Sequence record: OM386664.1
From: Escherichia phage vB_EcoM_ESCO50
DNA length: 64,000 nucleotides
Reading direction: 5' to 3' (one strand)
The stretch's first letter is position 1. Each line of letters begins with the position of its first letter. A model generated the notes under the pieces. The model was not told where the DNA came from and did no database searches. It saw nothing but the letters and a program-made list of their open reading frames with translations. Shown one piece after another: positions 3,796 to 53,276 of the stretch. The position numbers were made by a program, and so were the translations under genes.

Positions 3796-6030
3796 CTAAA
3801 CACCACAACCCTCGCAATAAGCATCTTGCAGTGCAGATTTACCTACACCAATGCGACTGTTAAGGTAGTACATGGTTTTCATACCTACCGAGTTGGCATA
3901 AATCATGTACTTCAGAGCTTGAGCCAATGATACCTTTTTAGACTTTGCATAGTCAACATAGAAGTCTGAAGAAATAGCTTGACCAGTGAACTTTTGAACA
4001 ATTGCATAACAATCAATCATATCAAAGGTGTCAATATCCCAAGCAATTTCATAGACATACTTCAACTCTTCATAATCTGGAACAATAAACAGCACGTTAC
4101 CAGTTGCAGACTTTTTAGTTAAAATAAAGTCACGAATTGGGTACAAGCCATTTGTCGTATTAGTTGCTAGTGAAGAACTCTCATTAGGCATGTAAGCTTC
4201 TAATACAGAGTTTCGGATTCCACCATTTTCTTTGATACGTTGTGCTAAGTCATCCCAATCATATCGTAGTTTTGCATCATGCTTTTCATCAATCTTCTTG
4301 TTAGCTGTTTTTGGAGGAACCCAGCCTTCAGGATACTTAGTGAACTTCATGTACTCTGGAACGCCACGCTCTTTAGCAAGTCTCAGAGAGGCTTCATGCA
4401 GATAGTAAGAGTGCATCTCTGCCAGTTCATGAAGTTTCGTTTTACCTGCTCGTGAAGAGTAGTTCACGTAGTTCTTCGCAAGGTAATGAGCCACATTTGT
4501 AAGGCCAATCCCAACAGAACGACGCTTCTGTACATGGTTACGCATCGACGGATACGGATAATCCATAAGGTCAATAACGGAGTCAACCATTGCAAGAGCA
4601 TAATAAGCAACGTCAGCGTATTCATCTTCTGAAATTCTCCCTGCAACCAAACTAGCTAGGAAGCAAAGAGCTACCTCACCATCCTCTTTCACAGCATCGT
4701 CTCTGTAAAGGTCTGTCTCTTTCTCAAAACCATACACTGGCAACACAATTTCCATACAAAGATTTGACATCTTCAATGGTTCTTTAAATGGTGTATGTGT
4801 GTTCGCATTGTTAGTGAAGAATGGATACACACGACCTGTAGCATAACGCTGTTGAATAAACAGTTTAGCAATTTCACGAGCCTTTACTCGTCTGTGCTTA
4901 ACTCCTGAATGTACTGCGTGACCAACTGCCATAGCAAACTCATCAGCAGATGCTGTGTAGAACATGTCATAGAGTTTTGGTGCATCTTTGTAAGAGAATA
5001 GCAACCAATCTGTATCATACTGAACACACTGCCAGAAGTAATCGTTTGTGCCGAATGAGTAGTCCATCTCATTAATACGTTTAGAAGGAACCGTTGTAGG
5101 GTGCTTCAAACGCAGTAAATCTTCAATCTGCGGGTCTAGAGCAGTGTAGAAGTTATTAGCTGAACCACCACGACTCTTCTGTTTGTTTGCCTCTACAGAT
5201 GAACGTACAAGCTTGTAATAAGGTAGTTTACCCATGTGCTCAATCGTATTTTGACGGATACCATCACCGATGGTACGTGTCTCCATCAGCATACCAATAC
5301 CAGCTTGCTTTGTGGTCATATCATAAGCAACCTTTGCAGCAATACCAAGTGATTCAGCAGTATCATTTGCCTTAATCAAACAGCATGACGCATAGCCTGA
5401 CTTGGTGGCTCTTAAACCGTTTAAATAAGGCGTAGGAGCGTTAATCTTCAGGTCAGATAGGTAAGTGTACAGCTTGATAACATCTTGTAACCTACGGTGC
5501 TTTGGTTGCTTCTCAAAGGCTTTCATAGCCATACCCATAAACATAAACTGTGGTGACTCAAAAAGTCTTCCAGTTTTAATATCACGGATACCATACTTGT
5601 CTCTGAACTGTTTCAAGACTGCATAACCGTAAGAGATATCTTTTGAGTGTACGATGTAACCTTGCAGGTATTCAAGCTCTTCCTGTGAATAATCCATCTT
5701 CTCCCAAAGTCCTGCTCTCTCCATATTTTTAACGAAGGTAATCAGCGTAGGAACCTTAGTAAAGCCTCCAAAGGCTTCTTTGTAGATAATACCCAAAAGT
5801 AGCCGTCCAGCCATATCTGAGTATTCTTGAGTTTGTTTATCAACACAAACATCAATCATGGCTTGGTGCATCTCTTTTGTAGTGCAACCTTCATAGATAC
5901 GTTTCATAGCTTCCATAGTGACTTCTGACCAGATAATTCCACGTTTATCTGCCCATGATGCCCACTTATTCAGTCTTTCTGGGTCAAAGCTTACTACTGT
6001 ACCGTTTGATTTTTTAATTGTCTTAATCAT
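3796..6030 (-). CDS. nrdA: Ribonucleotide reductase class I large (alpha) subunit
   Basis: 744 aa; contains SNLCMEI active-site-type motif and C-terminal CEGCG tail cysteines typical of class I alpha subunits. Confidence 0.9.
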   Translation of the reverse strand: MIKTIKKSNGTVVSFDPERLNKWASWADKRGIIWSEVTMEAMKRIYEGCTTKEMHQAMIDVCVDKQTQEYSDMAGRLLLGIIYKEAFGGFTKVPTLITFVKNMERAGLWEKMDYSQEELEYLQGYIVHSKDISYGYAVLKQFRDKYGIRDIKTGRLFESPQFMFMGMAMKAFEKQPKHRRLQDVIKLYTYLSDLKINAPTPYLNGLRATKSGYASCCLIKANDTAESLGIAAKVAYDMTTKQAGIGMLMETRTIGDGIRQNTIEHMGKLPYYKLVRSSVEANKQKSRGGSANNFYTALDPQIEDLLRLKHPTTVPSKRINEMDYSFGTNDYFWQCVQYDTDWLLFSYKDAPKLYDMFYTASADEFAMAVGHAVHSGVKHRRVKAREIAKLFIQQRYATGRVYPFFTNNANTHTPFKEPLKMSNLCMEIVLPVYGFEKETDLYRDDAVKEDGEVALCFLASLVAGRISEDEYADVAYYALAMVDSVIDLMDYPYPSMRNHVQKRRSVGIGLTNVAHYLAKNYVNYSSRAGKTKLHELAEMHSYYLHEASLRLAKERGVPEYMKFTKYPEGWVPPKTANKKIDEKHDAKLRYDWDDLAQRIKENGGIRNSVLEAYMPNESSSLATNTTNGLYPIRDFILTKKSATGNVLFIVPDYEELKYVYEIAWDIDTFDMIDCYAIVQKFTGQAISSDFYVDYAKSKKVSLAQALKYMIYANSVGMKTMYYLNSRIGVGKSALQDAYCEGCGV

Positions 6031-40748: not shown

Positions 40749-41124
40749 TCATTTTATCCCTTCTAATAATGATATATTCATAATGGGATGTATGGGCTAA
40801 TTGCTGTGACCAATCCATAATCATAAATACTTCATACTCATGACCATCAATCATAACAATGTCAGACTCGTTCCACTCTACATCATCTGAAGTTCTAAGT
40901 TTATATGTAGTATACAGGATTCTTGTATCGGTAAGCCTAATACCTTCCGGTAAAGCAATCTGTGTACCATTCTTTACAGAGCCTTTGATATATGGCTGGA
41001 TATTACCTTTACAGTTAACCTCTACAATATCTTGTGAAGCTACCCAATCACCATCATCATTGTAATAACCATCTTCAGAGACTTTACGCTTTACTACAAA
41101 GCTGTGTCTGTTTAAGAGTCTCAT
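40723..41124 (-). CDS. Head-tail joining protein (133 aa)
   Basis: Synteny. Confidence 0.45.
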   Translation of the reverse strand: MRLLNRHSFVVKRKVSEDGYYNDDGDWVASQDIVEVNCKGNIQPYIKGSVKNGTQIALPEGIRLTDTRILYTTYKLRTSDDVEWNESDIVMIDGHEYEVFMIMDWSQQLAHTSHYEYIIIRRDKMNAVRNSRT

Positions 41125-41603
41125 TTCTTAATACCCTTCTTAGTAGAAATTTTATAAGCAAGGTTATCTCTTAAGTCACCTGTCTCAACAAGAGGTGCGT
41201 TAAAGCCTTTTTTCTTGACTGTGGAAGGTGCGTTAGGAGGGAGGATAGCAGAATTACCAAAACCCCTTTTAATTGCCTTTTGAGCATTCTTTGCAAATGC
41301 TTCTAAGGTATTTGAAGGGTCTGTGTTGAGACTGCTAAGTTGCTTATATAGATTCTTCTTAGTCTGCTCTAACAAGGTCTGTTTGTTTAGCATCATAGTG
41401 ATTTCAAACAACCTACGATATACTTTACCAGAAGCTGAAGGAACCCCAATAACTTCTTGTAAATACATTAAAGCAGGATAAGAAAAACCAGAGCTATGTT
41501 GACCTTGTTCTTGAAAATACCCAACTTGAGCATTAGCCGTTTGCAAGTTCTTCATAGCCCCGACTAATTTTGCTCTAGCGGGGTGAATAACCCTTTTAAC
41601 CAT
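41121..41603 (-). CDS. Head-tail connector/completion protein (160 aa)
   Basis: Synteny. Confidence 0.45.
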   Translation of the reverse strand: MVKRVIHPARAKLVGAMKNLQTANAQVGYFQEQGQHSSGFSYPALMYLQEVIGVPSASGKVYRRLFEITMMLNKQTLLEQTKKNLYKQLSSLNTDPSNTLEAFAKNAQKAIKRGFGNSAILPPNAPSTVKKKGFNAPLVETGDLRDNLAYKISTKKGIKK

Positions 41604-42052
41604 TATTCATCTCGCTCGATAATAAATACGCCATTAACACGGTTGCAGTAATCTCTGCCTTCGTATCTGGCAGCATCACCATATTCTGTGTATTTCTTGA
41701 CAGAGCAAGGATTATGACGACGCATGTCAATATCACACTGATTAATACCACCTGCATAGGGTAGTCCTGAAACAGAGCTTTTAACAAGGTCGTCATAAAC
41801 AGCTTTCAGAGATTTGAATCTGGAAGAGTTACGTAAATAAACACCACCAACCTTCTCATCTCCCATCTTGGCTACTTGAAAGAGTAAGTATTTAAGAGCT
41901 TTGATGGCTGCTTTCTTTTCATCCTTTCCAGACTCTAGATAGAACCACTCTAGCACAGACTGCTCGATAAGAATTTCATCATTATTAGTGTCTGTGCAGA
42001 GGATTCTTACTCTATCAAGAGGGTTATTGGCTGGGTCGCCTGTATAACACAT
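41603..42052 (-). CDS. Head completion protein (149 aa)
   Basis: Synteny. Confidence 0.45.
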   Translation of the reverse strand: MCYTGDPANNPLDRVRILCTDTNNDEILIEQSVLEWFYLESGKDEKKAAIKALKYLLFQVAKMGDEKVGGVYLRNSSRFKSLKAVYDDLVKSSVSGLPYAGGINQCDIDMRRHNPCSVKKYTEYGDAARYEGRDYCNRVNGVFIIERDE

Positions 42053-42073
42053 TCATAACCCTCCTTAAGAATA

Positions 42074-43189
42074 TTATGCGTCTTCATCGTCTTCAGCATC
42101 AGCGCGAACATCAATCAGCAACTGAGGACGAGTACAGTATGGCAGCATGTAAGAGTGAGCTTCGAAGTCAATACCTTCGTCACGGTCTTTTTCGTATTCG
42201 AATACGTACAGTTCCTGACCAAGTGTATTTGCGTAACCCATCTTAGGACATGGACCATATGCAACTTCGAAGATGTTGTTAGCTTCACCAAGCATAGATA
42301 CGTTAGGGAAAGCATGACCAACACCAACAGTTGATGCTACACCATCAATGCTCACCAGAGTGTGAACATTACCACGCTTGTCTTTGAACTTACCGTTGTA
42401 CTGGACAAACTTAACACCACCGTAGTAGAAGGTGTTCATATGAGCCTGAACGCCGTCAGTACCACCAGTTCTCAGAGAACCAGTAATCTGTTGCCAAGCC
42501 AGTGGAGTCTGCTGTGCAAGATAAGCGTCACGAATCTTAGGATGCTTAGTCAGTTTGCTGAAGAATACACGGTCAACAACTACATGAATTTCTTCACCGT
42601 TGATTACAGTACCAGTCTTAGCTTCGTCTTCCATGTGCATACGCAGTTCTTCAATAGATGCGTCGATGTCAGCATTAGGGTTGTCAAGGTCGAAGTAAAT
42701 AGTCTTCTTCTGAACGTCGAACTGCTGGTACAGGTCAGCATACAGTGTACCACGAGCATCAACAACTTTACCCTTCAGAGCTTGCATAAACAGGAACTCA
42801 CGAGTAATATCGAACTTGGTACGAATCTTCATCAGCTTCTTAGCACGGACTACAGCTTCAGTAGTCAGTTCGTTTGCAGTGCCTGGCTGACGTACACCCT
42901 GAATCTCATCAGGAGTGATGCTTTCAACTTCTTTGAAGTACATCATTGGGAAGCTGATTTGACGAACACGCTCAGGTGCGCTAGTCTCTGCTTTACGACT
43001 ATCACGGTCTACCGCATCAAGCAAGCTAACATCCCAATCAGTCAAATCCATAAGGAAAGTAGTTTGGGTGATTGGTGCTGAACGGAACAGACCTAAGTTG
43101 GAAATATACCCATAAGTATTTGGGATAGACTGGACTTCACCAGTCAGGTCAGCAAGGAAAAATCTGCTTTTTTCAGAATTAGTCAACAT
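42074..43189 (-). CDS. Major capsid protein (HK97-fold type)
   Basis: 371 aa, position after protease/scaffold and decoration genes. Confidence 0.7.
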   Translation of the reverse strand: MLTNSEKSRFFLADLTGEVQSIPNTYGYISNLGLFRSAPITQTTFLMDLTDWDVSLLDAVDRDSRKAETSAPERVRQISFPMMYFKEVESITPDEIQGVRQPGTANELTTEAVVRAKKLMKIRTKFDITREFLFMQALKGKVVDARGTLYADLYQQFDVQKKTIYFDLDNPNADIDASIEELRMHMEDEAKTGTVINGEEIHVVVDRVFFSKLTKHPKIRDAYLAQQTPLAWQQITGSLRTGGTDGVQAHMNTFYYGGVKFVQYNGKFKDKRGNVHTLVSIDGVASTVGVGHAFPNVSMLGEANNIFEVAYGPCPKMGYANTLGQELYVFEYEKDRDEGIDFEAHSYMLPYCTRPQLLIDVRADAEDDEDA

Positions 43190-49330: not shown

Positions 49331-49406
49331 TGGAGAATCCGAAGGGACTTGAACCCTTATAAACCTGTTTTGCAGACAGGAACATATCCATTTCTGTCAC
49401 GGATTC
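49331..49406 (-). tRNA. tRNA-Cys (anticodon GCA), CCA encoded
   Basis: Manual fold: perfect 7-bp acceptor, T-loop ttcaagt, anticodon loop cu-GCA-aa. Confidence 0.7.
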
Positions 49407-49411
49407 AAAAT

Positions 49412-49504
49412 TGGAGGAAGATACCAGACTTGAACTGGTACACCGATTTCTCAGCTACTGGCAGTTTAGCAAACTGCTCCCTTACCTTTTAGGGTTAATC
49501 TTCC
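49412..49504 (-). tRNA. tRNA-Ser (anticodon GCU), long variable arm
   Basis: Manual fold: perfect acceptor (ggaagat/atcttcc), anticodon stem gcagt/actgc, loop uu-GCU-aa, ~20-nt variable arm. Confidence 0.7.
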
Positions 49505-49505
49505 A

Positions 49506-50240
49506 TTATCTCTGTAATGCGCTCTTCATTTCTGGTGTTGCAATAGTATCAATCACACCAGTTTTACAAGCATCATCAAACCAGTCTGGTAAGATACCTG
49601 CTAAGAACCCATTGATATTCGTTTTAAGGTACTCTGCAATAAGGGCAGCTTCTTCTTCAATCATCTGCACAACTTCATCTGCATAAGCTGTAATCTTTGA
49701 AATACCTTCATTAATCTTACTAACAGCCTGATTAGCTAAATCAGAAATAGTCTCAAGACCCTCATCAATAGCGTCTTGTAAGTCACTTAACACACCGTTA
49801 ACACTGTCTAGTGTGCTGTTAATCATGTCAATAGCTTGCTGACCATACTCTGTAGCAACACCCATAATACCACTAAATGGTGTACAACCAACTTGTTCTC
49901 CTGCTGCACCCATAACATTGGAATACCCCTTTGCTACCTGCATACGTGATGAAAACTCATCAATAGACTTTTGACCATAGTCTGTTAGGGTCTTAGTAGT
50001 TGCTGTAGTGCTTGTAAGGCTTGTTGTAAAGCTGTTTAGAAGGACTGTTGTAAGTCCAGCAGCAACAAGCTTCTCCTGCATTGTAGGGTCTGTTACAGAG
50101 CTAATAGAGCTTACAAGTGATGTAGAGGCAGCTACGGTTCCACCGAGAACTGCTGCACCAGTAATAAGTGGGTTAGAAAACCCTCTACCGGTTTTTAAGA
50201 GATTAAAAATCTCCTTACCTTGTTCTGTCATCTCTTTCAT
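49506..50240 (-). CDS. Hypothetical Ser/Thr/Ala-rich protein embedded in the tRNA array (start trimmed to MKEMTEQ with AAAGG RBS)
   Basis: ORF track 49506..50288 would overlap the UAA tRNA; internal start at 50240 avoids this. Confidence 0.5.
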   Translation of the reverse strand: MKEMTEQGKEIFNLLKTGRGFSNPLITGAAVLGGTVAASTSLVSSISSVTDPTMQEKLVAAGLTTVLLNSFTTSLTSTTATTKTLTDYGQKSIDEFSSRMQVAKGYSNVMGAAGEQVGCTPFSGIMGVATEYGQQAIDMINSTLDSVNGVLSDLQDAIDEGLETISDLANQAVSKINEGISKITAYADEVVQMIEEEAALIAEYLKTNINGFLAGILPDWFDDACKTGVIDTIATPEMKSALQR

Positions 50241-50256
50241 TAAGCACCTTTGAAAT

Positions 50257-50335
50257 TGGTACTCCATATCGGATTCGAACCGATACATAACACAGATTTT
50301 AAGTCTGGCCTCTCTGCCAATTGGAGTAATGGAGC
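50257..50335 (-). tRNA. tRNA with anticodon UAA (leucine anticodon) but short variable region
   Basis: Manual fold: acceptor 7 bp (one G-U), T-arm atcgg-ttcgaat-ccgat, anticodon loop cu-UAA-aa, discriminator A73. Confidence 0.55.
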
Positions 50336-50337
50336 AT

Positions 50338-50413
50338 TGGCGGGGGATGTTGGAATTGAACCAACTTCTTCGATTTCAAAGACCGAGGTTTTAACCTTGT
50401 AAACTAATCCCCT
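50338..50413 (-). tRNA. tRNA-Gln (anticodon UUG)
   Basis: Manual fold: T-arm gttgg-ttcaatt-ccaac, anticodon loop cu-UUG-aa, U8 present; A1-C72 mismatch. Confidence 0.6.
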
Positions 50414-50421
50414 TTAAATCT

Positions 50422-50979
50422 TTACTTTCTCAGTGGATGAATAAAGAATGCCAACATAACTCTTCCCCTTGAGAATGCTCTTTCTTCTGGGACAACACTT
50501 TTTAGTTTCCATCCAATATAAATTCTCCAGTAAAACTGTTTACCAAAGATTTTAATTGATGGGATAAAAGCGAATAATCCCCAAGCATTGCTATTCCACA
50601 TTAGGAGATAACCAGTCTGATTATCTTCAGGGTCAGAACTTACGTTGATATTACCTTTCCACTTAGTAACATCTTTTACATCTCTTCCTAATACATGGTA
50701 AGAGAAGTTATAAGCTTTGTTTCTCCAGAGCCATCCAACTCTCTGCATGTAGACACCCAGCTTACCAATCTTTCTAATCTTAGCCCATCTTTTAACGTGG
50801 CCTTCATCACCATCAATCGGGTTGTCATAGGTCTCCATCCATCTGAATCCAAAAGGTAGATGCCCTTTCTTCTCACTGTAGAATGGAACCACGAAAGGTG
50901 CTAAGATGACTGCTAAGGTTGCTGCAAATGGTTCTAGTAAAGCTAGGAAAATCCATGAAGCATACTTCAAATATCTCAT
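50422..50979 (-). CDS. Membrane protein (185 aa) embedded in the tRNA array
   Basis: N-terminal hydrophobic segment IFLALLEPFAATLAVILAPFVVPF; Trp/Arg-rich remainder. Confidence 0.5.
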   Translation of the reverse strand: MRYLKYASWIFLALLEPFAATLAVILAPFVVPFYSEKKGHLPFGFRWMETYDNPIDGDEGHVKRWAKIRKIGKLGVYMQRVGWLWRNKAYNFSYHVLGRDVKDVTKWKGNINVSSDPEDNQTGYLLMWNSNAWGLFAFIPSIKIFGKQFYWRIYIGWKLKSVVPEERAFSRGRVMLAFFIHPLRK

Positions 50980-50998
50980 CTAAATAGCCTCTTAAAAT

Positions 50999-51076
50999 TG
51001 GTGTTCCAAGACGGATTCGAACCGTCACTAATACAAGGTTTGAGCTTGCATCCTCTGCCAATTGGGATACTGGAAC
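50999..51076 (-). tRNA. tRNA with anticodon CAA (leucine anticodon), short variable region
   Basis: Manual fold: T-arm gacgg-ttcgaat-ccgtc, anticodon loop cu-CAA-ac, D-loop similar to the UAA tRNA, A73. Confidence 0.55.
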
Positions 51077-51077
51077 A

Positions 51078-51152
51078 TGGTACTCACTAAAGGACTTGAA
51101 CCTTTTTCTTCATCTTGTAAGGGTGATGTTTTACCATATAAACTAAGCGAGT
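51078..51152 (-). tRNA. tRNA-Val (anticodon UAC)
   Basis: Manual fold: acceptor 7 bp (one G-U), anticodon loop cu-UAC-aa, U8. Confidence 0.65.
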
Positions 51153-51247
51153 GTGAAAGAGGTCTGAAGTTGTGCCGCTAACTCAACTCCGTGGAATTTG
51201 TTACGGTCTTCAGTTGACACCAGCGGTCTTTCACTTGACCTCTGAAT

Positions 51248-51324
51248 TGGTGCTGCTCACAGGACTCGAACCTGCATTTCCATCCTTACAAGGGATGTGT
51301 AATAGCCAATTATACGAAAGCAGC
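51248..51324 (-). tRNA. tRNA-Thr (anticodon UGU)
   Basis: Manual fold: perfect anticodon stem catcc/ggatg, loop cu-UGU-aa. Confidence 0.65.
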
Positions 51325-51331
51325 ATTAATT

Positions 51332-51406
51332 TGGAGCATCCAGAGGGAATCGAACCCTCAACCTCAGTTTGGAAGACTGTAATTTTCCCGTTTAAACTAT
51401 GGATGC
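51332..51406 (-). tRNA. tRNA-Gly (anticodon UCC)
   Basis: Manual fold: perfect acceptor, T-arm gaggg-ttcgatt-ccctc, loop cu-UCC-aa. Confidence 0.65.
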
Positions 51407-51412
51407 ACTAAT

Positions 51413-51488
51413 TGGTGGAGAAGCAGGGAATTGAACCCTGTACTTAAGTTTGCAAAACTTATGTTTTAACCATGTAAACTACATCCCC
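51413..51488 (-). tRNA. tRNA-Ala (anticodon UGC)
   Basis: Manual fold: perfect anticodon stem, loop uu-UGC-aa, and a G3-U70 wobble pair (the classic alanine identity element). Confidence 0.7.
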
Positions 51489-51494
51489 AATGTT

Positions 51495-51571
51495 TGGTAC
51501 ACCTAGAGAGATTCGAACTCACACTAAGCAGATTCTAAGTCTGCTGCCTCTACCAGTTGGGCTATAGGTGC
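51495..51571 (-). tRNA. tRNA with anticodon UAG (leucine anticodon), canonical 77-nt short-variable-arm geometry
   Basis: Manual fold: perfect 5-bp anticodon stem gcaga/tctgc, loop cu-UAG-aa, 5-nt variable loop, A73. Confidence 0.6.
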
Positions 51572-51828
51572 ATTAAATCTTTTTAGAGAACTTCTAAGAA
51601 CCTAAGCAACAAGGTTCCACAACAAGCTGTAATAACCTTAGAAGCCCTCTAAAAAGACCTAAAAAGGTCTTTGCATAGTCTTGTTTAATCCGGTGACTAG
51701 AACCTTTGGAGAGCTTGATATTATCTCTTCTCCGTGACACCTACTAGGTGCTCTATGAGTGTGTACGACAATACACGCGGGATACCAAAGCAACACCCTA
51801 ATGAAGCTTGGCTTTAAATCTTATTAGG

Positions 51829-51916
51829 CGGTAAGTAAAGGAGTCGAACCCTCACCGTATCTCTACAGTGGCAACTGTTTTCAAGACAGTTTGGCTACCA
51901 TTAGCCGCTACCTACC
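51829..51916 (-). tRNA. tRNA-Ser (anticodon UGA), long variable arm, CCA not encoded
   Basis: Manual fold: anticodon stem aactg/cagtt, loop cu-UGA-aa, ~18-nt variable region; T-stem has two G-U pairs. Confidence 0.5.
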
Positions 51917-51929
51917 CCTAATAAGACTT

Positions 51930-52012
51930 TGGCATGGGACGGAGGAGTTGAACCCCTTTGAAACGGTGTTGGAAGCCGTTGCTCATGCCTTAGAGTCTTA
52001 ACATCGTCCCAT
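51930..52012 (-). tRNA. tRNA-like gene, tentative Trp (anticodon CCA); D-region unusually long
   Basis: Perfect 7-bp acceptor and good T-arm; hairpin with loop uu-CCA-ac; but ~26 nt between anticodon arm and acceptor. Confidence 0.4.
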
Positions 52013-52155
52013 ACTATAATTCGAAGCTTACCGTATTATCTCAACACTGTAAAGCCCCTTCTCAGATTATTTACATGTTCTGGAAAACATGAGATACAGA
52101 CCACCTCCCTACAGGAAGACCCGCTTAGGTCGTCTAAGTAATCTGCTAACTAAAT

Positions 52156-52237
52156 TGGTCGAGGCGGCAGGACTCGAACCCGCATACTCCACTTACTCGG
52201 TTAACGTCTGTTTAGAAGACAGATGAGATACGCCCCG
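52156..52237 (-). tRNA. tRNA-like gene, tentative Arg (anticodon UCU); non-canonical arm spacing
   Basis: Acceptor (one G-U) and T-arm are clear; perfect hairpin tctgt-cttctaa-acaga; spacing leaves no room for a normal D-arm. Confidence 0.35.
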
Positions 52238-52485
52238 TAATTATCTTTAAAGACTCTCTTAGAAAGCCCTTAAAGATGCCCACCTTATTAATCATACCGT
52301 GGGCTAGTACGCCAAATTCTTTGATGAGGGATTGGAAGACCTCACTGGTGTTTAGCCTATCAAGCTACTGCCAGAAAAACATTGTCGTTTGCATTTATTT
52401 TAAATTTGCAAAATAGACGCTACGCAACGAAAACTAAGGGTACTATAAAGTGGTCACATCATTATTCTGCTACACTTCCATTAAA

Positions 52486-52625
52486 TTATCTTTGTAGATA
52501 AGCTACCCAGACTTGCTTAAGGTCTGTAGCGATGTGACTTTTTGGGTTTAAATCTAGAATTTACCCTTTCACCCTTTGTGGTCGCATACTCACAGGTAAG
52601 CTTAATAACTTATCTACAAAGATAA
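52486..52625. ncRNA. Candidate structured ncRNA: perfect 17-bp terminal inverted repeat enclosing ~106 nt with internal hairpins
   Basis: 52486-52502 ttatctttgtagataag is the exact reverse complement of 52609-52625; interior has hairpin cagac/gtctg and others; no T-loop. Confidence 0.3.
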
Positions 52626-52673
52626 TTACCAGACCGTTGTTTATCATCTTAACTAGATATCTCATAAAGTGTT

Positions 52674-52761
52674 TGGTGTGCCGTGTAGGAGTCGAACCTA
52701 CCGAGTCTCAATGACAAGGGATTTACAGTCCCCACCGCTACCATCTACGGGATAACGACAC
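52674..52761 (-). tRNA. tRNA-Tyr (anticodon GUA), long variable arm
   Basis: Manual fold: perfect T-arm gtagg-ttcgact-cctac, anticodon loop cu-GUA-aa, 16-nt variable region, acceptor with one G-U, U8. Confidence 0.6.
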
Positions 52762-52830
52762 ATTTAATTTCTATTCAGGCTAAGGACTTGCACCTTACAA
52801 ATCGGTGAGCAATCGCTTCTCTCCTGAATT

Positions 52831-52907
52831 TGGCGGTTAGTCAGGGATTCGAACCCTGTGCCATTCGCTTAACAGGCGACCGCACATACCTTATGTGCTT
52901 CCTAACC
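52831..52907 (-). tRNA. tRNA-Asn (anticodon GUU)
   Basis: Manual fold: perfect T-arm caggg-ttcgaat-ccctg, loop cu-GUU-aa. Confidence 0.6.
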
Positions 52908-52992
52908 ATGTTTAGTATTACCAGACCGTATCTTTCAATTTTTTCTGCTAAAAATTTAATAAATATTGCTGTAAACGGTCTTCTGTAAAATT

Positions 52993-53069
52993 TGGAGGCG
53001 GGTGCAGGAGTCGAACCTGCCGATACCATGCTAATGAGACATGTGAGACGCCCTTTCTCTATACCCGCA
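52993..53069 (-). tRNA. tRNA with anticodon CAU (Met, or Ile if C34 is modified)
   Basis: Manual fold: perfect T-arm gcagg-ttcgact-cctgc, loop cu-CAU-ua; acceptor register ambiguous at the 1-72 pair. Confidence 0.5.
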
Positions 53070-53199
53070 ATTCTTAATGACCAGACCAAATCTCTTCTTT
53101 GTCCGATTTACCTTCAGGTGAATAAGATTAAGTTTGCTGTAATTGGTCTTCTGTCAAAACTGGCGTTCCAGAAGGGATTTGTCTACTGGAACATTAATT

Positions 53200-53276
53200 T
53201 GGTCTCTGTTGGAGGACTTGAACCTCCGGCCTTACCGCCCCAAACGGAACGCTCTACCAAGCTGAGCTAAACAGAG
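53200..53276 (-). tRNA. tRNA-Pro (anticodon UGG)
   Basis: Manual fold: perfect acceptor (ctctgtt/aacagag), perfect T-arm, loop uu-UGG-gg with G37. Confidence 0.65.

Follow-up and report, generated by a model that had tools for sequence, protein, structure and literature searches.

Three short-armed leucine tRNA genes in the tRNA array of Escherichia phage vB_EcoM_ESCO50 are probably functional type I isoacceptors

The transfer RNA (tRNA) array of Escherichia phage vB_EcoM_ESCO50 (sequence record OM386664.1) raises the question of what three of its members, which carry leucine anticodons and almost no variable arm, are charged with, and by which enzyme. We examined this array within a stretch of 64,000 nucleotides (nt) of the phage genome, hereafter the window. 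The three genes most likely encode functional leucine isoacceptors built on a type I scaffold and charged by the host's leucyl-tRNA synthetase (LeuRS). A preliminary description of this DNA had offered two readings, and the first of these, that the phage supplies non-canonical class-I leucine tRNAs, is upheld by the LeuRS identity elements (all except the arm), by the isotype scores of orthologues in Shigella phage Sf14, and by strong purifying selection on the genes. The array, the three leucine genes, and the three type II tRNAs that serve as internal controls are as follows.

49331..53276, minus strand: tRNA array; 15 tRNAs (ARAGORN), all on the minus strand, nearly all with encoded CCA
50257..50335, minus strand: tRNA-Leu(UAA), type I; ARAGORN call, 79 nt with encoded CCA; Rfam RF00005 score 47.5 bits
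50999..51076, minus strand: tRNA-Leu(CAA), type I; ARAGORN call, 78 nt with encoded CCA; Rfam RF00005 score 44.0 bits
51495..51571, minus strand: tRNA-Leu(UAG), type I; ARAGORN call, 77 nt with encoded CCA; Rfam RF00005 score 59.2 bits
49412..49504, minus strand: tRNA-Ser(GCU), type II control; ARAGORN call, 93 nt, stem-loop variable arm
51827..51916, minus strand: tRNA-Ser(UGA), type II control; ARAGORN call, 90 nt, stem-loop variable arm
52674..52761, minus strand: tRNA-Tyr(GUA), type II control; ARAGORN call, 88 nt, stem-loop variable arm

All three leucine tRNAs form canonical cloverleafs, with the expected stems and arms, an anticodon loop with U33, and scores above the RF00005 gathering score of 29 bits (ARAGORN, Rfam). 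Each has a 7-base-pair (bp) acceptor stem, U8, A9, a 3-bp D stem, an 11-nt D loop, a 5-bp anticodon stem, a 7-nt anticodon loop, and the T loop UUCGAAU, and the universal tertiary nucleotides U8, A14, G18G19, G53, U54, U55, C56, A58, and C61 are present in 3/3. Domain parsing assigned to tRNA-Leu(UAA) the D stem CUC/GAG, D loop CAAUUGGCAGA, anticodon loop CUUAAAA, and a 7-nt variable loop, GUUAUGU; to tRNA-Leu(CAA) the D stem UCC/GGA, D loop CAAUUGGCAGA, anticodon loop CUCAAAC, and a 6-nt variable loop, AUUAGU; and to tRNA-Leu(UAG) the D stem GCC/GGC, D loop CAACUGGUAGA, anticodon loop CUUAGAA, and a 5-nt variable loop, UUAGU, together with a single U-U mismatch in the T stem. All three carry A73 as their discriminator, and the variable region is unpaired, with no extra stem. 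Thus the features that had been read from the letters alone, namely anticodons UAA, CAA, and UAG in 7-nt loops with U33, total lengths of 77–79 nt, variable regions of only 5–7 nt, A73 throughout, and long variable arms in the two Ser tRNAs and the Tyr tRNA of the same array, agree with the ARAGORN structures, the Rfam scores, and the domain parse, and the fold check that had been called for yielded cloverleafs without a long arm or a shifted anticodon register. Minimum-free-energy folding of the bare sequences was uninformative (z-scores −0.4 to −1.8, with the UAA tRNA misfolding), as folding energy usually is for tRNAs. A long-arm fold or another anticodon register for these genes came from none of ARAGORN, the Rfam model, or our own covariance model.

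We compared the phage tRNAs with their host cognates from Escherichia coli K-12, fetched by coordinate: leuZ (UAA), leuW (UAG), and leuX (CAA). These are 85–87 nt long and have variable arms of 13–15 nt, the size that the preliminary description had given as normal for bacterial tRNA-Leu. A type II arm, i.e., one of at least 10 nt with a stem, is absent from the three phage tRNAs, which are hence not canonical type II tRNA-Leu. Host D arms consist of a 3-bp stem and an 11-nt loop, GAAUCGGUAGA or AAAUYGGUAGA, and the phage leucine tRNAs share this architecture; their D loops agree with the best-matching host D loop at 9–10 of 11 positions, therefore A14, A15, G18G19, and the 3′ half of the loop stand in the same register. 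A15 is present, and U48 is the last variable nucleotide, in all three phage tRNAs. At the sequence level, both the nucleotides and the spacing of A15-U48, U8:A14, and G18G19, along with a Leu-type D arm, match those of leuZ, leuW, and leuX. A blastn search for the nearest host tRNA among 5,426 E. coli genomes gave no match at E ≤ 1, and across the 66 positions outside the variable region and anticodon the three are 42–62% identical to the E. coli cognates and to the tRNA-Leu of phages T4 and T5. Set against canonical type II tRNA-Leu as a group (leuZ, leuW, leuX, T4 UAA, and T5 UAG), the likeness extends to the leucine anticodons, A73, U8/A14, A15 with U48, the 3-bp D stem, the 11-nt D loop motif (N)AAYYGGYAGA, the place of G18G19, and the T-loop core. 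The differences are a variable region of 13–15 nt with a stem in type II against 5–7 nt without one in the phage tRNAs, and a core with G9, G12-C23, and G13/A22 in type II against A9, C12-G23, and C13/A22 in the window. The anticodon loop of tRNA-Leu(UAG), CUUAGAA, has C32 and A37, where that of E. coli leuW, UUUAGGU, has U32 and G37, the usual m1G37 site of tRNAs that read CUN codons. The same difference at positions 32 and 37 has been tabulated for phage Sf14 (PMC12482277).

The leucine identity set of E. coli comprises A73, A15-U48, G18G19, A20a, U8:A14, and the D-loop/T-loop contacts (Giege and Eriani 2023, PMC9976931). Apart from the long arm, each of the three phage tRNAs has the complete published set of E. 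coli LeuRS identity nucleotides (domain parse against PMC9976931). Neither the anticodon nor the long arm is required by E. coli LeuRS, and truncated tRNAs without both arms are still charged (PMC9976931). Because the enzyme is reported not to need the long arm, we consider it likely that host LeuRS leucylates these three tRNAs. The tRNAscan-SE isotype scores published for the orthologues in Shigella phage Sf14 place Leu first for all three (67.4, 49.1, and 60.2), in a study that does not mention the variable arm (PMC12482277); the Sf14 orthologue of the window tRNA-Leu(UAG) is 97.4% identical to it. In the sequence of events that we envisage, the leucine tRNAs would be transcribed as part of the array and then processed, host LeuRS would charge them with leucine through the retained A73 and the elbow and core determinants, and the charged tRNAs would decode UUA/UUG and CUA, perhaps also other CUN codons, in an AT-rich phage genome.

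Codon usage fits this scheme in part. The window has a G+C content of 39%, and its leucine codons are TTA (26%), TTG (13%), CTT (29%), CTC (6%), CTA (12%), and CTG (14%). The corresponding relative synonymous codon usage (RSCU) values of 1.58 for TTA, 0.70 for CTA, and 0.79 for TTG agree with those published for Sf14. Host values in the Sf14 study are 1.06 for TTA and 0.43 for CTA, and phage use was significantly above host use for these two codons, not for TTG (PMC12482277). The enrichment of UUA, UUG, and CUA that had been suggested as a check, there for late genes, is seen over the window for UUA and CUA when its RSCU is set against the Sf14 host, and not for UUG. Since TTA and CTA, not TTG, are over-used relative to the host, codon supply accounts for two of the three isoacceptors.

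Several observations weigh against leucylation by the host enzyme. E. coli LeuRS failed to charge the type I tRNA-Leu(CAA) of Streptomyces coelicolor and was described as an enzyme that "only charges type II" (Fan et al. 2019, PMC6614811). In the same paper, the leucine-specific domain of E. coli LeuRS is said to favour a large variable region, and a residue at position 47n, which type I tRNAs do not have, is listed as an E. coli element (PMC6614811). We found no aminoacylation data for the phage tRNAs in the literature searched. To these points must be added A37 in tRNA-Leu(UAG), where the host has G37, the U-U mismatch in the T stem of the same tRNA, and the CAA isoacceptor, which codon compensation leaves unexplained given that the phage does not over-use TTG.

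The S. coelicolor tRNA-Leu(CAA) resembles the phage tRNAs in its 5-nt variable loop, which is the minimal functional loop for that tRNA, in sharing a cytoplasm with type II tRNA-Leu, and in the importance of U8:A14 (PMC6614811). It differs from them in that A73 is no identity element for its LeuRS and in its dependence on a particular leucine-specific domain of that enzyme (PMC6614811). Since it has C48, it probably lacks the A15-U48 element. The phage tRNAs have both U48 and A73, are virus-encoded, come in isoacceptor sets, and must work with an enterobacterial LeuRS. [quoted passage not shown] Mitochondrial tRNAs of this kind have a dedicated mitochondrial LeuRS and a relaxed, AT-rich structure, whereas the phage tRNAs have fully canonical elbows and stems.

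The short form had been treated as a peculiarity of one phage, which does not hold: the type I form of tRNA-Leu is widespread among phages, occurring in tRNA arrays of unrelated members as well as in some bacterial contigs. Comparison with the tRNA sets of related phages, which had been proposed as a check, recovers three tRNA-Leu genes at the corresponding positions in Felix O1 and in Escherichia phage vB_EcoM_ESCO49 (hereafter ESCO49), as well as three type I tRNA-Leu in the Felix O1-like Erwinia phage Prophecy. Further afield, blastn with the 77-nt tRNA-Leu(UAG) gave ungapped matches of about 68 nt that run straight through the variable region of annotated tRNA-Leu genes in phages of Mycobacterium (78 records), Streptomyces (45), Enterococcus, Pseudomonas, Gordonia, Cronobacter, and Klebsiella. 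Representative phages were fetched and their tRNAs called by ARAGORN. This yielded three tRNA-Leu of 74–76 nt in Mycobacterium phage Cali, two of 77–78 nt each in Cronobacter phage CR3 and Pseudomonas phage PPSC2, and three of 77–78 nt in Erwinia phage Prophecy; three of 75–76 nt in Gordonia phage BlueNGold, along with an 89-nt call that overlaps a tRNA-Gln and has C73; one of 76 nt and one of 82 nt in Streptomyces phage StarPlatinum; and one of 76 nt and one of 86 nt in Enterococcus phage EFDG1. The single tRNA-Leu of T4 (87 nt) and of T5 (85 nt) are type II. In every phage of this set, the long arm is retained by the Ser tRNAs and, where one was called, by the Tyr tRNA. The Prophecy record also annotates a CCA-adding tRNA nucleotidyltransferase (40928–42196 of the examined stretch), and most of its tRNA genes encode CCA.

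Two scans of IMG/VR extend this pattern. The first used a pattern derived from the Leu-type D loop and the T loop and covered at least 120 loci; among the matches listed, it returned 137 short-arm and 38 long-arm tRNA-Leu, with a long arm in 89/89 Ser and 32/34 Tyr tRNAs, counts that give no frequency estimate because the motif is itself type I-like. The search pattern is absent from 70 of these 137 short-arm genes, again among the matches listed. A second scan, anchored on tRNA-Arg(UCU) and thus blind to leucine type, gave a rough type I share of 22% (11 of 50 tRNA-Leu among the matches listed) in a small sample that may include host tRNAs beside proviruses; there, the long arm was found in 22/22 Ser and 11/12 Tyr tRNAs. 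When the D-loop/T-loop pattern was applied to GTDB, the matching tRNAs were mostly tRNA-Trp (56), and we claim no bacterial frequency; type I tRNA-Leu nevertheless appeared in contigs of Planctomycetota, Acidobacteriota, and Actinomycetes, often as runs of 3–4 isoacceptors. Runs of 3–4 consecutive isoacceptors were seen in metagenome-assembled genome contigs of Planctomycetota, Acidobacteriota, and Xanthobacteraceae, and one or two type I tRNA-Leu each in isolate genomes of Asanoa, Pseudonocardia, and Nocardia.

The viral type I leucine tRNAs have a common signature. Across 130 distinct sequences, A73 is found in 130/130, U48 in 128/130, and a 5-nt variable loop in 112/130. In the 71 that lack the search pattern, A73 (71/71) and U48 (69/71) persist, and A14, A15, and G18 are invariant in those 41 whose D arm has the modal length of 17 nt. 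Two subclasses can be distinguished. The first has G9, G12-C23, and G13/A22, i.e., the type II tRNA-Leu core (37/39 of the viral type II tRNAs), and looks like a type II tRNA from which nothing but the arm has been removed. The second has A9, C12-G23, C13/A22, and a variable loop ending in AGU, and includes the three window tRNAs (A9, C12-G23, C13, A22, and U48); the variable loops of the CAA and UAG tRNAs end in AGU, and the 7-nt loop of the UAA tRNA ends in UGU, where the group form is NNAGU. As position 9 normally joins the 12-23 pair in a base triple, the linked changes at these positions look like co-variation of the tertiary core.

We aligned 61 type I leucine tRNAs from IMG/VR without gaps, all <80% identical to those of the window. 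Pairing on the cloverleaf is 98.4% in this alignment, and both partners have changed in 19 of its 20 pairs. As ARAGORN-selected sequences are biased towards pairing, the alignment mainly indicates that the helices persist despite many changes of sequence. The covariance model derived from it scored tRNA-Leu(UAG) at 84.2, tRNA-Leu(UAA) at 71.8, and tRNA-Leu(CAA) at 70.1 bits, ahead of the next best window tRNAs, Thr (54.4 bits) and Cys (47.5 bits); part of its seed was found by pattern, so that the D-loop and T-loop columns are somewhat inflated. Over the 66-position core, the window UAA and UAG tRNAs are 73–79% identical to the type I tRNA-Leu(UAG) of BlueNGold, and the UAG tRNA is 76% identical to type I tRNA-Leu of PPSC2 and CR3. 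The CAA tRNA is at most 62% identical to type I tRNAs of other phages.

Why the arm is missing is a separate matter. One explanation, which we regard as possible though rather unlikely, is that type I tRNA-Leu forms a distinct tRNA lineage, carried by viruses and mobile elements and maintained because it is insensitive to an agent acting on host type II tRNA-Leu. Arm loss, the remodelled core (A9, C12-G23, C13/A22), and the altered anticodon loops would together confer insensitivity, and leucine codons would still be translated once host tRNA-Leu is disabled; the agent might be a nuclease of host defence, or an assault on host tRNAs that the phage itself induces. Human SLFN11 reportedly cuts type II tRNAs specifically, whereas the single bacterial Schlafen studied, RorSlfn5, cuts type I tRNAs. 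The T5 tRNA-Tyr escapes Septu and retron-Eco7 by virtue of a different variable arm (PMC13096335), and differences from host tRNAs in the anticodon loop are described for phage tRNAs, for example those of T5, in PMC10264068. Like the window tRNAs, these T5 tRNAs are phage-encoded counterparts of host isoacceptors that have been altered systematically, either in the anticodon loop or in the variable region; for T5, the nuclease and the resistance phenotype are known, whereas for the window leucine tRNAs the parallel is hypothetical. If evasion were the cause, efficient charging of type I tRNA-Leu by enterobacterial LeuRS would follow, at odds with the published type II-only statement. Neutral loss of a dispensable arm is an equally possible cause, and arm loss was perhaps favoured by compactness or by avoidance of the seryl- and tyrosyl-tRNA synthetases (SerRS and TyrRS).

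The same defence systems give some footing to a role outside decoding, in which the three tRNAs would act as decoys or inhibitors of tRNA-targeting defence, or as regulators, and charging would be irrelevant. Phage tRNAs that neutralise PARIS, retron-Eco7, and Septu are described in PMC13096335, and both retron-Eco7 and Septu cut the variable arm of type II tRNA-Tyr (PMC13096335). However, the phage has kept three distinct leucine anticodons and the full LeuRS identity elements, which a pure decoy does not need, and no bacterial nuclease aimed at tRNA-Leu or its long type II arm was found in the literature searched. We accordingly hold a non-decoding role to be improbable, and return to functional isoacceptors charged by host LeuRS as the preferred reading.

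Conservation of the genes bears on whether they are in use at all. Identity of at least 99% is found for tRNA-Leu(UAA) in 215 phage records and for tRNA-Leu(CAA) in 159, and over the entire array it falls below 95% in 175 of the 310 matching records, a pattern that points to strong purifying selection on the three leucine genes. They could in principle be relics, i.e., decaying tRNA-Leu genes that have lost the arm and gone out of use, in an array that does hold degenerate tRNA-like remnants (52156–52237 and 51930–52010) and whose tRNA content differs among close relatives (15 here against 25 in Felix O1). Yet decay is very improbable for genes that remain 99–100% identical over hundreds of genomes whose arrays differ by up to 10–20%, that have all universal tertiary nucleotides and the CCA intact, and whose short form is common to the distant Erwinia phage (three type I tRNA-Leu) and to unrelated phages, with compensatory changes that keep every helix across the type I leucine group.

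The second reading of the preliminary description, charging with another amino acid and recoding of UUA, UUG, and CUA, was addressed through the meaning of these codons in phage proteins. NrdA (3796–6030, minus strand) was aligned with 29 non-redundant homologues of 48–65% identity, and the share of leucine in the homologues was counted for each window codon. Leucine made up 77% at the 7 columns with TTA, 52% at the 11 with TTG, and 84% at the 8 with CTA, compared to 53% at the 16 with CTT, 90% at the single column with CTC, 66% at the 14 with CTG, and 3.7% at all non-leucine codons. [quoted passage not shown] TTA, TTG, and CTA pair with Prophecy leucine codons at 55%, 50%, and 65%, and CTT, CTC, and CTG at 62%, 51%, and 60%. 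All six leucine codons interchange between the two phages (window TTA, for example, stands opposite 38 CTT and 31 CTG), and the non-leucine partners are Ile, Met, and Val. By both measures, UUA, UUG, and CUA behave like the other leucine codons in phage proteins.

Whole or partial reassignment of the three codons, with the tRNAs carrying a residue other than leucine, has the unusual scaffold as the only point in its favour within the window, besides precedents elsewhere (the Thr, Ser, or Ala carried by leucine-anticodon tRNAs of yeast mitochondria and of yeasts in the CTG clade, and the nematode nev-tRNAs described in PMC3333845), and is scarcely credible, because the codons sit at conserved leucine columns of NrdA as often as CTT, CTC, and CTG do (52–84% against the 3.7% background) and interchange freely with them over the Prophecy alignment with Ile, Met, and Val as substitution partners, while A73 and the Leu-type D arm are kept, the isotype models of the orthologues place Leu first (PMC12482277), and host type II tRNA-Leu can read the same codons anyway.

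The array is 99.2% identical to that of ESCO49, and the window phage is a Felixounavirus. Most of the 310 matching phage records belong to Felixounavirus or to other Ounavirinae, from Escherichia, Salmonella, Shigella, Citrobacter, and Erwinia. ESCO49 and Felix O1 (AF320576) have the same array annotated, both records have three tRNA-Leu genes at these positions, and a tRNA-Leu annotation of these genes is present in hundreds of phage records. Some neighbours in the array lie only 1–2 nt apart (Gln/Leu-UAA and Val/Leu-CAA), which implies co-transcription and processing of the array. Its tRNA content shifts quickly among very close relatives: ARAGORN finds the 15 and 25 tRNAs given above for the window and Felix O1, and 20 are annotated in ESCO49, which is 99% identical. 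Genes for HNH homing endonucleases lie inside the array of several relatives.

At the slot of tRNA-Leu(UAG), Felix O1 (4660–4737 of the examined stretch) has a type I tRNA-Leu(UAG) of different sequence, GGGAGAUUG..., where the window (51495–51571) has GCACCUAUAGCC... The window allele is similar to the ones in Cronobacter phage CR3 and Gordonia phage BlueNGold, an apparent case of a cassette being replaced inside the array. Two further elements on the minus strand are tRNA-like. The first (52156–52237), not called by ARAGORN, scores 33.4 bits with the Rfam tRNA model and 25 bits with the type I Leu model; besides a good acceptor stem of 7 bp, it has A73, CCA, and a T arm, the place of its D arm is occupied by a hairpin with an Arg(UCU)-like loop, CUUCUAA, and it may be a rearranged or decayed tRNA-Arg(UCU). 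The second (51930–52010) is a degenerate element with a cloverleaf-like fold, a 9-nt "anticodon" loop, and an AUGCCA end, which scores only 11 bits with the type I Leu model.

Two protein genes also lie within the array, both on the minus strand (49506–50240 and 50422–50979); one encodes a DUF7217 and the other a DUF7338 protein, the latter annotated as a holin in ESCO49. The program-made ORF at 49506–50288 overlaps the 3′ end of tRNA-Leu(UAA), so its true start is probably the ATG at 50240. A Pfam scan of 20 window ORFs identified ribonucleotide reductase, DNA polymerase A, terminase, portal, and tail proteins, and no synthetase was among these 20 ORFs of a window that covers about 64 of roughly 85 kb.

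These genes are already known as annotations, and type I tRNA-Leu is already known from mitochondria and S. coelicolor. In the literature searched, which included few subscription journals and leaves room for an older description, we found no account of these phage tRNAs as type I, of how the form has spread across unrelated phages, or of the compatibility with enterobacterial LeuRS that it would imply. Only the S. coelicolor paper there treats type I tRNA-Leu in a bacterial system, and it presents that organism as the first case of both tRNA-Leu types in one bacterial cytoplasm (PMC6614811). Textbooks and recent primary literature take the tRNA-Leu of bacterial systems to be type II, a picture that would be too narrow if the phage tRNAs are charged in E. 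coli and Salmonella. Each infection by these common phages would then place both types in one cell with one LeuRS, and the phage genes would provide a natural, E. coli-compatible minimal scaffold for studies of LeuRS recognition and editing and for tRNA engineering. The wide yet patchy distribution of the form also poses an evolutionary question, as many phages have dropped the arm from leucine tRNAs and almost never from those for serine or tyrosine, and this loss can now be set against the growing list of tRNA-targeting defence systems.

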